From a virus (lineage: Duplodnaviria > Heunggongvirae > Uroviricota > Caudoviricetes), in IMG/VR virus record IMGVR_UViG_2698536397_000026: DNA of 39,458 nt, one strand, 5' to 3'. The notes beneath the pieces were generated by a model. That model worked only from the letters and a program-made list of their open reading frames with translations. It had not been told where the DNA came from and made no database searches. The first letter of the stretch is position 1; every line of letters starts with the position of its first letter. Below, piece by piece: positions 1-39,458 of the stretch. The position numbers were made by a program, and so were the translations under genes.

Positions 1-108
1 ATGACGCTCGCGAAGTTTGCCATGATTTTCTGGCACGACCTGGCAGCACCGATCCTGGCGGGGATTATTACCGCAGCGATTGTCGGCTGGTGGCGTAACC
101 GGAAGTAA
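1..108 (+). CDS. ldr: Ldr-family type I toxin peptide (35 aa), flanking host copy 1
   Basis: 35-aa hydrophobic ORF MTLAKFAMIFWHDLAAPILAGIITAAIVGWWRNRK; matches my recollection of E. coli Ldr toxins (FWHDLAAP motif); near-identical copy at 39351..39458. Confidence 0.6.
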   Translation: MTLAKFAMIFWHDLAAPILAGIITAAIVGWWRNRK

Positions 109-190: not shown

Positions 191-223
191 TCTTTATCTC
201 TTCCACAAGTAAATATTGGCAAC

Positions 224-396
224 TGTAACCAGGTGAATCATTTGATACCAACGAGGGTTTTAGTGAAAGGAGGTGAAATCACCTGTAAGATACTGAAATA
301 AAACAGGTGATGTCTGGATGAGCGCTTAAAGTCTATTTGATACCGATTGTGCAATAATTAATCGTTTATTCTAAAATCGGCAAAACTTTTGATACT
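224..396. repeat. attL: left end with three transposase-binding repeats (TTTGATACY at 241, 336, 388)
   Basis: Motif TTTGATAC(C/T) recurs three times, and three times in inverse orientation at the right end; spacing (95 bp, then 52 bp) resembles Mu L1/L2/L3. Confidence 0.5.
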
Positions 397-10325: not shown

Positions 10326-10751
10326 ATGGCAGAAACTCAGATGAGCATGTTTGGTGGTGACAGTGAGCAACTGCACGCCCTTATCGACCGCCTTGATGAC
10401 ATCCCTGATGATGTTCTCAAAAAGAACTGGCCGCGGACCCTGTCAGAACTGGTTGAAGTCACCGGCGCAGAACTTCAGCGTCAGGGGATTGAGCCGGTAC
10501 TGGCCGGTAAACTGGCACGCAAGGTGGCTGCGGCTCAGGCAGCCTATATGGGCGGACGGGGTTATTACCTGCCGGTCGGGGAATCTCTCTTTGCCGAGCT
10601 GCGAAACAATGAGATATTTTCGCGCTGGGACCGGGGCGAGAAAATTGAATCCCTTCGCCGCCATTACCGGATGTCAGAAACCCAGATTTATACCGTCATA
10701 CGCGAACAGCGCCGTCTGCATCTGGCAAGAACGCAACCGCCACTTTTCTGA
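10326..10751 (+). CDS. Mor/C-family transcriptional activator (middle/late gene activator)
   Basis: 141 aa; C-terminal HTH region and ending ...QPPLF, similar to Mu Mor / C proteins as I recall them; own RBS GGAGG after terminator. Confidence 0.7.
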   Translation: MAETQMSMFGGDSEQLHALIDRLDDIPDDVLKKNWPRTLSELVEVTGAELQRQGIEPVLAGKLARKVAAAQAAYMGGRGYYLPVGESLFAELRNNEIFSRWDRGEKIESLRRHYRMSETQIYTVIREQRRLHLARTQPPLF

Positions 10752-34172: not shown

Positions 34173-34733
34173 ATGCTGATTGGCTATATACGCGTATCAA
34201 CAAATGACCAGAACACAGGTTTACAAAGAAATGCGCTGGAATGTGCAGGATGTGAGCAGATTTTTGAAGATAAAATGAGCGGAAAAACAACGCAGCGGCC
34301 GGGACTGAAGCGGGCACTGAAGAAACTAAAACCCGGTGACACGCTGATGGTCTGGAAACTGGACAGGCTGGGGCGCAGTATGCGCCACCTTGTTGCGCTG
34401 ACAGATGAATTACAGCAACAGGGGATAAATTTTCGTAGTCTTACTGACAACATTGATACGTCAACCCCCATGGGGCGCTTCTTTTTTCACATAATGGGTG
34501 CGCTGGCAGAAATGGAGCGTGAATTAATTGTCGAACGGACACGGGCTGGTCTTGCAGCTGCCCGTGAAAGGGGACGAACCGGCGGCAGACCCCGTCGTCT
34601 CACGCAGGAACAATACGAGCAGGTCGGGCGTTTACTGGCCGGGGGTGTCAGTCGAAGACAGGTGGCACTTATTTTTGATATCGGCCTTTCAACCCTTTAT
34701 CGTTATTATCCTGCGAGCGTTTCGGAAAAATAA
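34173..34733 (+). CDS. gin: serine recombinase, DNA invertase (Gin/Hin/Cin family)
   Basis: 186 aa; MLIGYIRVSTNDQ... catalytic Ser motif and C-terminal HTH; RBS AAGGAAGG. Confidence 0.9.
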   Translation: MLIGYIRVSTNDQNTGLQRNALECAGCEQIFEDKMSGKTTQRPGLKRALKKLKPGDTLMVWKLDRLGRSMRHLVALTDELQQQGINFRSLTDNIDTSTPMGRFFFHIMGALAEMERELIVERTRAGLAAARERGRTGGRPRRLTQEQYEQVGRLLAGGVSRRQVALIFDIGLSTLYRYYPASVSEK

Positions 34734-34823: not shown

Positions 34824-36881
34824 ATGAATATTATGACGTCCAAATGGGTTCAACTATCATCAATGCCCGGAAACTTTACCGTTAAAGTTTCCGGTGGTAC
34901 AGCGGCATTTCTTGAGGCTCCCTTTCCTCCTGCTGAAACGAAAGGAGGAATGACATTTGCTGACTGTCTCATCAGTTTTAATACACAGGATTGCCTGTGG
35001 GTAAGGCCAGTATCCGGTGATCCGAACGTGGAAATTACCGGAGCGGGTATTGGTGCTGTCATTCCGTTAAGTGCTGATGTTGCCGGTACTACTGAACCGT
35101 CAGACTGGGATAATGCAGAAACACATACCCGTCCGGCAGGAAATGAAACTGCTTCCAGCTCCCCTTCCTGGTATTACGTGATTGTTATAGCCGGCCAGTC
35201 CAATGCTTCATCTTATGGTGAAGGGTTGCCCCTTCCGGATTCTTATGATCGTCCTGATCCACGTATTATGCAGCTGGCACGCAGGAATACACAAACCCCC
35301 GGAGGTATTCCCTGCAAATACAATGAAATCATTCCAGCAGATCACTGCCTTCATGATGTTCAGAATATGAGTCTGCTGAACCATCCAAAAGCAGACCTGA
35401 AAAAAGGGCAGTATGGTTGTGTGGGGCAGGGACTTCATATTGCGAAAAAAGTATTACCGGTGATTCCTGCTGATGCCGGGATTTTACTGGTTCCCTGTGC
35501 CCGTGGCGGCTCTGCTTTTACAACCGGCGCAGTTGGCTCATTCGATCCGGCAAGTGGTGCAGCCGAGGCGTCACTACGCTGGGGAGTGGATACCCCACTG
35601 TATCAGGATCTTGTCAGTCGAACTAAAGCGGCACTTGAGGCGAATCCAAAGAATGTGCTGTTATCTGTCGTATGGATTCAGGGGGAAGGAGACCTTAAAG
35701 CGACCCCGGCCCAGCATGGTGCCCAGTTTACTGCGATGGTGAAAAAATTCCGTGCGGATCTTGGTGCTTTCTCCGGTCAGTGTATTGGTGGTTCATCAGA
35801 CAGTGTGCCGTGGTTATGTGGTGACACAACCTATGACTGGAAAGAGAAGAACCCGGCGGCATATGAAACCATTTATAGCGGATATAAAAACCGGGCTTCC
35901 GAGAACATTCACTTTGTTCCACTGATGCACGATGAGTTCGGTAATAAAACCGCGACCAACCTGCCGGAGCACGACCCGGATATCGCTTCTGCCGGGTATT
36001 ATGGTGCGGAATCACGGGGAGATGGCAACTGGACAACAGCATCCAGGGCAACCCATTTTAGCTCCTGGGCGCGCCGTTTTCTGGTCTCAGATCGTTTTGC
36101 ATCAGCAATTCTTAAATATGCAGGTCTGACCTCTGCATTTATTGCCGGTGTGGCCCCTGATGGTGAAGCCCTGCCTCAGCCCGCGCCGGGTGGGAAACCG
36201 GAAGCGCCGACAGGTAGTCAGCCAGGAGGCAGTGAGTCCCCCCATCCGACATCCCCGTCACTCCGTACGCTGCTTTCACTTAAAGCATCAGCAGGAGAAG
36301 CCCCGGCTCAGGGCTGGAAAATTACAGATGGTACAATCCAGCTGACGGACGAAGGTAAAGCGTTGACCGTATCCAAACAAAGCGGAAAAACCTGGACGCT
36401 TACCCATGGAACTGATGCAGCCGGTGAACTTCTGAAGCATGGTGGTCAGTTGACCTGTAAATTCCGTCTGTCAGGTGAAGTAAAAGAAGGCCAGTTTGCT
36501 CTGGGTATTTACCTCCACACCGATACGGTCCCGGAAGGTGTAACCATGAGTGGTACAGGCACACCGTTCCTGATGGCGTATTATCTCCAGACAACAGGCG
36601 GCCAGTTAAATCTGATGCACCATAAAACAGGGGGGAATACGAAACTGGGATCATTTGGAGCCTACAATAACCAGTGGCATACACTTGTCCTGAAGTTTAC
36701 GGCGGGAAGTGCCCAGGTAACGCCTGTGCTGGATGGCACTCCGGGCCAGGCATTCCAGATGGTGAAAGATGCACTTTCCCCTGCCAAAGATACGCTGACA
36801 CTGACAGATGTCACCAAAGGGGCAACTTATGGCGTGTCTTTTGAGAGCGTTGTCCTTGAGGTTAATACCCCTGCGGCATAA
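34824..36881 (+). CDS. SASA/SGNH-family carbohydrate esterase (sialate O-acetylesterase-like) with Pro-rich linker and C-terminal beta-sandwich/lectin-like domain; cargo gene
   Basis: 685 aa; block I IAGQSNASSYGEG, block WIQGEGD, no N-terminal signal peptide; Pro-rich linker PQPAPGGKPEAPTGSQPGGSESPHPTSPS; not part of the Mu gene set. Confidence 0.65.
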   Translation: MNIMTSKWVQLSSMPGNFTVKVSGGTAAFLEAPFPPAETKGGMTFADCLISFNTQDCLWVRPVSGDPNVEITGAGIGAVIPLSADVAGTTEPSDWDNAETHTRPAGNETASSSPSWYYVIVIAGQSNASSYGEGLPLPDSYDRPDPRIMQLARRNTQTPGGIPCKYNEIIPADHCLHDVQNMSLLNHPKADLKKGQYGCVGQGLHIAKKVLPVIPADAGILLVPCARGGSAFTTGAVGSFDPASGAAEASLRWGVDTPLYQDLVSRTKAALEANPKNVLLSVVWIQGEGDLKATPAQHGAQFTAMVKKFRADLGAFSGQCIGGSSDSVPWLCGDTTYDWKEKNPAAYETIYSGYKNRASENIHFVPLMHDEFGNKTATNLPEHDPDIASAGYYGAESRGDGNWTTASRATHFSSWARRFLVSDRFASAILKYAGLTSAFIAGVAPDGEALPQPAPGGKPEAPTGSQPGGSESPHPTSPSLRTLLSLKASAGEAPAQGWKITDGTIQLTDEGKALTVSKQSGKTWTLTHGTDAAGELLKHGGQLTCKFRLSGEVKEGQFALGIYLHTDTVPEGVTMSGTGTPFLMAYYLQTTGGQLNLMHHKTGGNTKLGSFGAYNNQWHTLVLKFTAGSAQVTPVLDGTPGQAFQMVKDALSPAKDTLTLTDVTKGATYGVSFESVVLEVNTPAA

Positions 36882-36938
36882 TCGTGACGGCCGGGAATTT
36901 ATCCGGCTGTAACATCAGTTAATAAGAGTGAGGCTTAT

Positions 36939-37118
36939 ATGACATATATAAACGTCTGCCTGCTGTATTTCTGCACGGTGGTTTGTTGTCTGTTGCTTGT
37001 CAGCGGTGGTTATAAAATTATTCGCAATTATTTTCGAAATAAAATTGATGCAGCTGCCGAGGAAAAGATAAAAAGCGGTGCTGTAATGCCGCAGCCGAAA
37101 GACTCCGGTCAGATTTAA
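36939..37118 (+). CDS. small membrane peptide (59 aa)
   Basis: RBS GAGTGAGG; hydrophobic N-terminus VCLLYFCTVVCCLLLVSGG; below 60-aa track cut-off. Confidence 0.4.
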   Translation: MTYINVCLLYFCTVVCCLLLVSGGYKIIRNYFRNKIDAAAEEKIKSGAVMPQPKDSGQI

Positions 37119-37153
37119 TTTTTTGTGAACCAGAAAAGGAAAGGAGAATATTC

Positions 37154-37399
37154 ATGCCAGAGATTAAAGGCACGGTTACTGAAGAGCTTGTCAAACAGGC
37201 ACTTTATTCTGAAGAAGTGAACCGCGTGCTGAAGGCGCAGGTTCGCAAGGATTTTGAGGCACAAATCGACGCATATGTTGATGAAGTGCTGGCCCGAATG
37301 GTTGGTCGTTCTCCGGCTGAAAACAGCACGGAAAATGAGCCTCAACCCGTAGAGCAACCAGAGCCGGTTCAACCCGGAACTGACGGTACTATGATGTAA
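37154..37399 (+). CDS. hypothetical acidic protein (81 aa)
   Basis: RBS AAGGAAAGGAG before ATG; followed by hairpin. Confidence 0.45.
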   Translation: MPEIKGTVTEELVKQALYSEEVNRVLKAQVRKDFEAQIDAYVDEVLARMVGRSPAENSTENEPQPVEQPEPVQPGTDGTMM

Positions 37400-37408
37400 C
37401 AATACCGA

Positions 37409-37428
37409 CCGGCAGGTTTCCCTGCCGG
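37409..37428. terminator. hairpin (CCGGCAGG-TTTC-CCTGCCGG) between convergent small genes
   Basis: Perfect 8-bp stem; short T-containing tail on + strand. Confidence 0.4.
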
Positions 37429-37437
37429 GTGAATTTG

Positions 37438-37608
37438 TTAATGCACGTTTTGTGTATTTTCCCTCCGGGGAGAACAGGCCGGACATATCAGCATCCTGAA
37501 ACAGGAAGCATTTTTTGGTTTGTATGTCTTGCCATTTTGAGATCGAGAACGGCGATAGATGAGCTGTAAGGGAGTCTTACAGGCAGGGCAAACAGGCTCT
37601 TTATCCAT
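37438..37608 (-). CDS. candidate small zinc-ribbon protein (56 aa)
   Basis: Minus-strand ORF with perfect AAGGAG 9 nt upstream of ATG; two CPAC motifs about 30 aa apart; basic. Confidence 0.35.
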   Translation of the reverse strand: MDKEPVCPACKTPLQLIYRRSRSQNGKTYKPKNASCFRMLICPACSPRRENTQNVH

Positions 37609-37716
37609 GATAAAGATCTCCTTTTTATGCATCTCTGCTTTACAGGAGACCGGGGAATATCATAGGATACGCCACGAGCTCGAAGTAAAGCATTGATGCA
37701 AGTTTTTACAGATTGA

Positions 37717-37752
37717 CCCAGCATAGTTCCAGCTATGCTGGGTTTCCCTTTT
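37717..37752 (+). terminator. strong rho-independent terminator upstream of com-mom control region
   Basis: Perfect 10-bp stem CCCAGCATAG / CTATGCTGGG, 6-nt loop, followed by TTTCCCTTTT. Confidence 0.6.
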
Positions 37753-37794
37753 ATGTAGTATCCTGTTGATTTGAAACATACTACATATACGCGC

Positions 37795-37844
37795 GATCCT
37801 ACCTTCACTGTATAAAAAGTCAATAAAATGATCATTTTATGATC
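37795..37844. promoter_or_regulatory. cluster of three GATC (Dam) sites upstream of com; candidate methylation-sensitive mom control region
   Basis: GATC at 37795, 37830, 37841 within 50 bp in an AT-rich region; Mu mom is known to be controlled by Dam methylation of three upstream GATC sites. Confidence 0.4.
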
Positions 37845-38014
37845 GTTTTCACCACCTAACTCTTCGTTTCTTTAAGTAAATAATCACCGCCCTGAATCAT
37901 TGTTGATGACTTTTAAATCTATTTGTTGTATCAATTAAACAAATCGAATCGATCGTTTTTGTCGATCGATTGCATGAGAAAGGCATCAACAACAAAGCAG
38001 GAGGTTATGCGGCC

Positions 38015-38215
38015 ATGTATCGAAACATACGGTGCCGACACTGCAATAAGCTACTGGCACGGGCCAGTTTCAGTTATCTGGAAGTAAAATGTCCGCGCTG
38101 TAAAACCCTCAATCAAATCACATCTCCGAGCGCCACAGAGCACCCCACATACACAAGGAAATCCTGTCGTGGGGAACAGAAAGCAAGTCACATCCCGTAT
38201 CATCAGCACGCCTGA
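38015..38215 (+). CDS. com: Com-like zinc-finger translational activator of mom
   Basis: [30 protein letters not shown] closely parallels Mu Com zinc finger as I recall it; RBS AGGAGG; overlaps downstream mom-like ORF. Confidence 0.8.
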
Positions 38216-38906
38216 ACTTATTCGCTATAACGACAATATCGTTGGTTATGGCTCCCGTGAGTTGCGGGTTGAGACAATAAGTTGCTGGCTGGCCAGACTG
38301 GTTATCGTCAATAAACATTACAGCCACCGTTTCGTAAATAATTCCTACCTTCATCTGGGTATATTTTCAGAACGGGAACTTGTTGGCGTAATGCAATGGG
38401 GTTACGCCCTTAACCCAAACAGTGGTGCACGCGTCGTAACGGGTACGCAGAACCGAGAATATATGGAGCTTAACCGGCTATGGATGCATGACTGTATGCC
38501 GAGAAACTCCGAATCAAGGGCAATCAGTTACGCGCTCAAGCTAATCAGGCAGCTTTATCCGCAGGTACAGTGGGTTCAGTCGTTTGCAGATGAGCGTTGT
38601 GGCTGTCTTGGTGTCGTGTATCAGGCAAGCAATTTTGATTATGTAGGCAGCCATGAATCAACATTCTATGAACTTGATGGCGAGTGGTATCACGAGATTT
38701 GCAGGAGTGCCATTAAACGAGGCGGACAACGAGGTGAACATCTGAGGGCTAATATCGACAGAGCCAGTGTGCATAAGTTCCGACAGTTTCGTTACATCCG
38801 GTTTCTGAACAAGAGGGCCAGAAAACGCCTCAACACAAAGCTATTCAAAGTCCAGCCTTACCCAAAACCACAAACAGTTAAAACTGGTTTGAAAGAGAGT
38901 GAATGA
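38169..38906 (+). CDS. mom: Mom-like DNA modification protein; start codon uncertain
   Basis: 245-aa ORF overlapping com 3' end, last gene before right end, exactly as Mu mom; track start is GTG. Confidence 0.65.
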
Positions 38907-38951
38907 GCGCTTAAAAACTCATTCTAAAACTCAAAAGAAAAGCGCCGATTT

Positions 38952-39036
38952 AGTATCAAATAAGTTGCGTATCGGCGTTTTTCAGCGGTATCAAATGAAA
39001 TGCAAATCGGTATCAAAAAAATCGCCGCGCTATACA
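38952..39036. repeat. attR: right end with three inverted transposase-binding repeats (rTTTGATACY at 38952, 38988, 39009), terminus ...GCGCTATACA
   Basis: GGTATCAAA / AGTATCAAA are reverse complements of left-end repeats; terminal CGCCGCGCTATACA resembles the Mu right end in my recollection. Confidence 0.5.
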
Positions 39037-39350
39037 ACCCGAGCTGGAAGCATCATCCAGAGCCCTCATGAAACGACTGTAACAGCTGTTGAAAAACCGG
39101 AATGCACTCTTCATTGCAAACATTTCAGGGATGAAGTGAAGATGAATTGAGACGTAGTATCCACATCAAGCCGGCGTTATCCGGTGAGGCGCAATGTTGC
39201 GGGGGCTTTATCCCTGGTGGCATTGGTTGCTGGAAAGAGAAAACCCCCGCACGTTGAGAGGTTTAACCTGACAACAGAACGGGGGCTAATCTTGAACCAG
39301 AACAATTCAAGAATAGCCGCAAAATGTTGTCATTACAACAAGGCGGCTAT

Positions 39351-39458
39351 ATGACGCTCGCGCAGTTTGCCATGATTTTCTGGCACGACCTGGCAGCACC
39401 GATCCTGGCGGGAATTATTACCGCAGCGATTGTCGGCTGGTGGCGTAACCGGAAGTAA
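39351..39458 (+). CDS. ldr: Ldr-family type I toxin peptide (35 aa), flanking host copy 2
   Basis: MTLAQFAMIFWHDLAAPILAGIITAAIVGWWRNRK; differs from copy 1 at 2 of 108 nt (K5Q plus one silent change). Confidence 0.6.
   Translation: MTLAQFAMIFWHDLAAPILAGIITAAIVGWWRNRK

Follow-up and report, generated by a model that had tools for sequence, protein, structure and literature searches.

The window, by which we mean the whole 39,458-nt stretch of DNA that was analysed, is an E. coli chromosomal segment with a Mu-like prophage (~224-39032), and near the right end of that prophage lies what is very probably a com-mom late operon, governed by a Mu-type switch of Com protein and translation inhibition structure (TIS) and encoding a Mom-type DNA modification enzyme. 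From homology and comparative RNA structure we assign the start of mom, with high confidence, to GTG 38169. The locus is a textbook com-mom system that is already annotated in RefSeq, and it has little importance beyond correct annotation. The com/TIS/GUG logic of Mu and the active site of Mom are conserved in a prophage family that occurs among complete E. coli genomes at a frequency of approximately 4%; many of the carriers are listed as STEC or O157/O111 strains.

The reference system is com-mom of phage Mu (Mup54/Mup55, NC_000929 35768-36602), together with those of D108 and SfMu. Mu and the window have in common a four-cysteine Com, a com-mom overlap of ~50 nt, a CCCAC/GUGGG helix whose 3' arm includes the GUG, a hairpin with a 4-bp stem and a 6-nt loop directly 5' of the TIS, and two upstream GATC sites with the same 13-nt spacing. 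The initial annotation had proposed a com-mom pair with a layout matching the translational unmasking of mom in Mu, and both the homology and the shared two-hairpin fold agree with this reading.

The com and mom genes

The upstream gene and its ribosome-binding site are as follows.

com: 38015..38215, plus strand; ATG 38015, stop 38213-38215; 66-aa zinc ribbon
com Shine-Dalgarno (SD) AGGAGG: 37999..38004, plus strand; 10 nt before the ATG

Com passes the cut-off of Pfam family PF10122 (Zn_ribbon_Com) with a match at 2e-12. It shares 47% identity with Mu Com, and its zinc cysteines C7, C10, C26 and C29 align with C6, C9, C26 and C29 of Mu. PGAP annotates the same protein (WP_001443803.1) at identical coordinates, and the GGAGG of the SD is kept in an alignment of 14 loci (alignment A3). 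When the PDB was searched by sequence with Com, the sole matches were weak ones to S27e zinc ribbons (E at least 0.014), and no solved Com relative emerged. By analogy with Mu, Com would be a zinc-ribbon translational activator that binds RNA and activates mom. The two genes overlap by 47 nt (38169-38215, com stop included), close to the 45 nt or so estimated initially. To place the pair among its relatives, 164 loci encoding Mom relatives were gathered, which gave 120 distinct junction sequences; in 84 of these 120 loci from other genomes mom is overlapped or directly preceded by an ORF for a CxxC...CxxC zinc ribbon, and the pairing is thus not due to chance. The overlap itself is kept in most com-carrying loci.

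The downstream gene and its translation signals are as follows.

mom: 38169..38906, plus strand; GTG 38169, stop 38904-38906; 245 aa, predicted GNAT-fold DNA adenine-N6 modification enzyme
mom start codon GUG: 38169..38171, plus strand; sole canonical start, aligned with the Mu GUG
mom Shine-Dalgarno AAGGA: 38155..38159, plus strand; within the TIS loop, 9 nt upstream of the GUG

The mom frame opens after an in-frame stop at 38085-38087, and GTG 38169 is the only ATG, GTG or TTG in the 27 open codons upstream of it and the 25 codons that precede the VGYG motif. The next canonical codon, TTG 38262, is already inside the conserved Mom core, and no ATG occurs in frame until codon 75 (38391), in line with the earlier estimate of about 70 codons devoid of ATG. 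For Mu, the literature puts the initiation codon of mom, a GUG, within the TIS stem (PMC6483171). The RefSeq entry for Mu mom instead has an ATG start and 241 aa, and the GUG of the literature lies ten codons downstream of that ATG. Loss of the 10 residues before the GUG is tolerated by Mu Mom, whereas loss of 20 lowers activity (PMC13219725). The Mu GUG (L001:838, in the context cauuGUGGGAAAA) aligns with the GTG of the window, downstream of which the window has a two-codon insertion relative to Mu. RefSeq/PGAP likewise starts Mom (WP_000528256.1) at GTG 38169. A non-ATG start within the overlap, as the initial annotation expected, is hence what the frame offers; the start was described there as unresolved, and its homology to the Mu GUG, its retention in relatives and its use by RefSeq now allow it to be assigned.

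Mom matches the whole 202-position profile of Pfam family PF25680 (Mom) at 8.5e-77 over residues 31-233, and aligns full-length and gapless with PDB 8bv8_A (6e-124). The alignment to Mu Mom proposed earlier gives 79% identity over 229 residues with no gaps; the window protein differs in having two additional codons at the N-terminal end and a tail of 12 residues at the C-terminal end. The chemistry, which the initial annotation took to be unknown, is established for Mu Mom: glycine from Gly-tRNA(Gly) is placed on adenine N6 in double-stranded DNA, the adduct rearranges to N6-carbamoylmethyl-dA, and the structure is available as PDB 8BV8 (PMC13219725). Mutagenesis has identified R111, S124, D149, R151, W48, H58, Y59, Y159 and W181 of Mu Mom as essential or important (PMC13219725), and the window Mom has all nine (R103, S116, D141, R143, W40, H50, Y51, Y151 and W173). 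The helix-turn-helix-like insertion that is needed for activity (Mu residues ~175-209) is also intact, gapless and of high identity. The motif that Mu Mom modifies is SAS. By its similarity to Mu Mom, the window protein would transfer glycine from Gly-tRNA(Gly) to adenine N6 of double-stranded phage DNA and, like Mu Mom, presumably make N6-carbamoylmethyl-dA by rearrangement of the adduct, which would protect the phage DNA from restriction enzymes. By the same analogy, induced prophages likely make restriction-resistant DNA.

Hairpins at the com-mom junction

The junction has three RNA elements.

Com-binding consensus match, GAGcgCCacaGAGcaCC: 38128..38144, plus strand; exact match to the SELEX motif
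Predicted Com target hairpin: 38130..38143, plus strand; stem 38130-38133/38140-38143, 6-nt loop CACAGA 38134-38139
TIS: 38143..38174, plus strand; CCCCAC 38143-38148 paired with GUGGGG 38169-38174, 6 bp

The Com-binding consensus obtained by SELEX is bipartite, GAG-NN-CC-N2-3-GAG-NN-CC (PMC6483171), and a fixed-gap search found a single match in the window, where 0.11 would be expected by chance. The hairpin within this match folds weakly by itself (-1.7 kcal/mol). Across 21 distinct sequences, all four of its stem pairs show compensatory changes, the stem variants including AUGC/GCAU, GCAC/GUGC, GCGU/ACGC and GUGC/GCAC, and the GA on the 3' side of the loop is invariant. Five of the 21 sequences, forming the clade of the window, have a C38131/A38142 mismatch. 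A 97%-identical variant of the window locus (L104) has U-A in place of this mismatch and hence a perfect 4-bp stem.

All 21 sequences keep the TIS paired (100% of cells). Its outer pair is U-A in 11, C-G in 9 and U-G in 1, and four of its six pairs are invariant and therefore uninformative on covariation. An inner helix, AGG 38156-38158 with CCU 38163-38165, holds part of the mom SD. The predicted minimum free energy is -11.5 kcal/mol with a z-score of -2.07, which alone is modest, 10 of 200 shuffled sequences folding as well. Taking both helices together, 97.4% of cells are paired, compared with 23-62% after a shift of the 3' partners by 1-3 columns, and the observed covariation score is reached by none of 500 shuffles; the alignment consists of 21 distinct com-carrying junctions that are related to one another, so these values reflect few independent covariation events. 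RNAalifold, with no structure supplied, returns exactly the Com hairpin and the TIS helix. The segment suggested initially for folding, 38150-38260, leaves out the 5' half of this structure, whose full extent is 38130-38174.

The RNA elements lie inside the com frame, where they encode an EHPT motif, and part of their conservation could thus be at the protein level. At the outer TIS pair, the change from C-G to U-A converts a His codon of com from CAC to CAU and Gly2 of mom from GGG to GGA; both substitutions are synonymous, which points to selection on the RNA and not on either protein. The published two-hairpin model is backed by these natural variants: the TIS has either C-G or U-A at its outer pair, and in the Com hairpin four pairs covary.

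If the switch operates as in Mu, com and mom would be carried on one transcript and com would be translated from its own strong SD. In the free mRNA, GUG 38169 would be held in the 6-bp helix and part of the mom SD in the inner helix, so that mom initiation would be blocked. Com would bind the hairpin at 38130-38143 and its flanking GAG..CC motifs. As C38143 can pair in either the Com hairpin or the TIS, the two helices compete for it, and Com binding would open the inhibitory helix and expose the SD and GUG of mom. In Mu and two relatives the base equivalent to C38143 is assigned differently in the minimum-free-energy and centroid structures, an ambiguity that fits Com binding at the 5' hairpin weakening the inhibitory helix.

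Relative to Mu, the TIS loop of the window is longer (20 versus 11 nt) and adds the inner helix over the SD, the predicted stability is greater (-11.5 versus -8.7 kcal/mol), C-G replaces U-A at the outer TIS pair, and the Com hairpin has the C/A mismatch. It is conceivable, although we hold this only tentatively and think it rather doubtful, that the E. coli clade uses a re-wired Mu lock in which transcription, translation and modularity all differ. At the level of translation, the inhibitory structure may be stronger and two-layered, covering both GUG and SD, and the Com hairpin may be weakened by its mismatch, which together would imply different requirements for Com dosage.

An unlikely account of the same arrangement is translational coupling, in which ribosomes on com melt the inhibitory helix and the Com protein itself contributes little to unmasking the RNA. 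The com ORF contains the two hairpins as well as the mom start, the overlap is 47 nt and widely kept, and, with com ending at 38215, ribosomes translating it cross 38130-38174. However, coupling has no need of a 5' hairpin with four covarying pairs, an invariant loop GA and a SELEX motif, and classical studies of Mu (Hattman 1987, Wulczyn 1989 and Wulczyn & Kahmann 1991) present Com as binding mom mRNA and acting as a translation factor. Coupling could contribute alongside Com, and the Com-dependent switch is the reading that we prefer.

Sequestration of the start may extend beyond this clade. Enterobacterial mom loci without com are also without the CCCAC/GUGGG pairing and start with ATG or TTG. 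Three distant com-mom loci with an AUG start pair the AUG or the SD with an upstream segment, through CCAU/AUGG (L012), GCCA/UGGC (L164) or UCUCCGA/UCGGAGA over the SD (L007), which suggests that sequestration is wider than CCCAC/GUGGG.

Upstream region and prophage setting

The region upstream of com contains one conserved element.

Inverted repeat AATCGATCG-N7-CGATCGATT with two Dam sites: 37947..37971, no strand assigned; GATC 37951-37954 and 37964-37967

These two GATC sites align with sites 2 and 3 of Mu mom and form invariant columns in the 14-locus alignment, and Mu GATC site 1 is absent from the window. Further GATC sequences are found at 37795, 37830 and 37841, ~110-160 nt upstream of the conserved pair in a clade-variable region. 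The last GATC is 47 nt from the com ATG in the window and 74 nt in Mu, and between the two the same alignment has no ATTAT-N6-ATAAC dyad for the window; in Mu this dyad, the binding site of the C protein, stands between the last GATC and the -10. The promoter interval is thus ~27-30 nt shorter than that of Mu and without the C-box dyad. The short GATC-com interval also occurs in L104, L110, L111, L112 and L005, and L110-L112 have a good -10 (TATACT or TATAGT) 7-9 nt after the last GATC, where the window has only GAGAAA. A scan for sigma-70 promoters and terminators flagged the inverted repeat and gave no promoter candidate in 37836-38014, where the best -10, GAGAAA at 37976-37981, is poor. Comparison by eye of the com upstream region with the late regions of the phage (10690-10840 and 18530-18740) revealed no convincing shared C-box.

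If GAGAAA is the true -10, the Dam sites would overlap the -35 and the spacer. As the transcriptional part of a re-wired lock, the Dam sites 47 nt from com may therefore have Dam/OxyR acting directly on RNA polymerase binding. In some enterobacterial mom loci without com (L009, L011, L151, L154 and L156; ~230 nt upstream of mom), a cluster of three GATC sites ends ~20-25 nt before the ATG, so that a promoter would not fit between the Dam sites and the start.

The poor -10, the shortened interval and the missing dyad would also be expected if com-mom were a decaying, unexpressed remnant, for example one with a remodelled promoter region. We regard this as very improbable: neither ORF is disrupted, a protein identical to this Mom is the head of a cluster with 1318 member sequences, com-mom is found in 226 complete E. 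coli genomes (at least 90% identity over at least 80% of the length), and the gene set of the prophage is Mu-like and complete, with a Mor/C-family activator among its genes. A weak promoter is, moreover, what an activator-dependent late gene should have. The setting of com-mom in the prophage has the following features.

Mor/C-family late activator ORF: 10326-10751; Pfam Mor, 2.8e-32
Prophage right end with repeated GGTATCAAA motifs: 38940..39032, no strand assigned; defined by the empty site L165, a second insertion in NZ_CP075632 and the annotation of LC727881
rdlD antitoxin RNA (host): 39238-39303, minus strand; Rfam, 87.6 bits

Three complete E. coli genomes match the whole segment 37700-39458 at 100% identity, and in them the right-end region adjoins ldrA and kdsA; the prophage is flanked by copies of ldr type I toxin genes (window 1-108 and 39351-39458). 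A permissive Rfam search of 37400-39458 returned nothing at com/mom, its sole real match being the host rdlD; Rfam has no curated family for the Com site or the TIS. The right junction reads GCGCTATA followed by CAACCCGAG (39032/39033, window 39028-39041), the left junction GGCAAC followed by TGTAACC (window 219-226), and the empty site (L165:700-720) GGCAACCCGAG. The empty site and both junctions together indicate a target duplication of 4 bp (CAAC) and a right end of ...CTATA. The second insertion (NZ_CP075632; L166 and L167) has the duplication AAAC, and for LC727881 the annotated duplication is CATC, also 4 bp. As each of the three has C as its last base, a 3-bp duplication with a phage-borne C would also fit. 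Mu itself makes a 5-bp target duplication and has a terminal CA. A Mu-type end of this kind was considered for the window and ruled out by the empty site and the second insertion, which give 4 bp and ...CTATA.

In this prophage ~3.2 kb of extra genes (34824-37900) separate gin (34173-34733) from com, where Mu has 94 nt. They encode a 685-aa sialate O-acetylesterase-like protein (SASA and DUF6645), DUF1378 and DUF826, and include a frameshifted minus-strand ORF at 37438-37900. The SASA/DUF6645, DUF1378 and DUF826 gene types are usual in lambdoid or Stx phages.

The mom start among relatives and sibling prophages

The invariant VGYG glycine of enterobacterial loci is preceded, 22-26 codons upstream, by a conserved start codon. 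At this position Mu-type and window-type loci have GTG, Symbiopectobacterium and other loci have ATG and a few have TTG, and in several relatives the codon is the only candidate start. Mom residues from S9-R10 onward are conserved at the protein level across 41 homologues.

Sibling prophages carry the same start in front of a different enzyme.

com-C5-methyltransferase loci: L002:2802-4008 (LC727881) and L168:401-1607 (NZ_CP045712.1 3573845-3575051)

LC727881 and a second prophage of strain FHI_NMBU_11 have the same com, both hairpins and the sequence GUG GGG AAC, and a 350-aa C5 cytosine methyltransferase (Pfam PF00145, 2e-42) replaces Mom. Homology between window and siblings breaks ~10 nt after the GUG, and PGAP starts the methyltransferase at the same GTG. 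If this GUG were not the real start, its use by both Mom and an unrelated C5-methyltransferase would be hard to account for.

A start of mom elsewhere, at ATC 38199, ATC 38202, ATT 38220, TTG 38262 or ATC 38112, which would leave GTG 38169 with a purely structural role in the helix, is scarcely credible: these codons are in frame and the frame has no ATG for 74 codons, but none has an SD at a suitable distance in the 18 nt inspected upstream, TTG 38262 would delete the invariant VGYG motif, the residues from S9-R10 onward are conserved and the equivalent deletion in Mu lowers activity (PMC13219725), and the GTG/ATG/TTG position is kept in relatives and common to the unrelated methyltransferase ORF. 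The five codons were accordingly listed and dismissed as being without an SD and losing conserved residues.

The control cassette of mom thus also precedes a cytosine methyltransferase. In FluMu, Pnm1 and Pseudomonas phage B3, com is paired with DNA adenine-N6 methyltransferases (PMC3299994), which shows com and its target site to be a module able to control different DNA-modifying enzymes encoded at one and the same place in the genome. The siblings of the window resemble these phages but have a C5-methyltransferase, whereas the window itself carries Mom. As the modular part of the re-wired lock, com, the hairpins and the GUG may form a portable cassette, with a recombination breakpoint ~10 nt past the start codon, that drives Mom or, in siblings, the C5-methyltransferase. 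Among complete E. coli genomes, com-methyltransferase is found in 10, compared with the 226 that have com-mom, and one strain has both.
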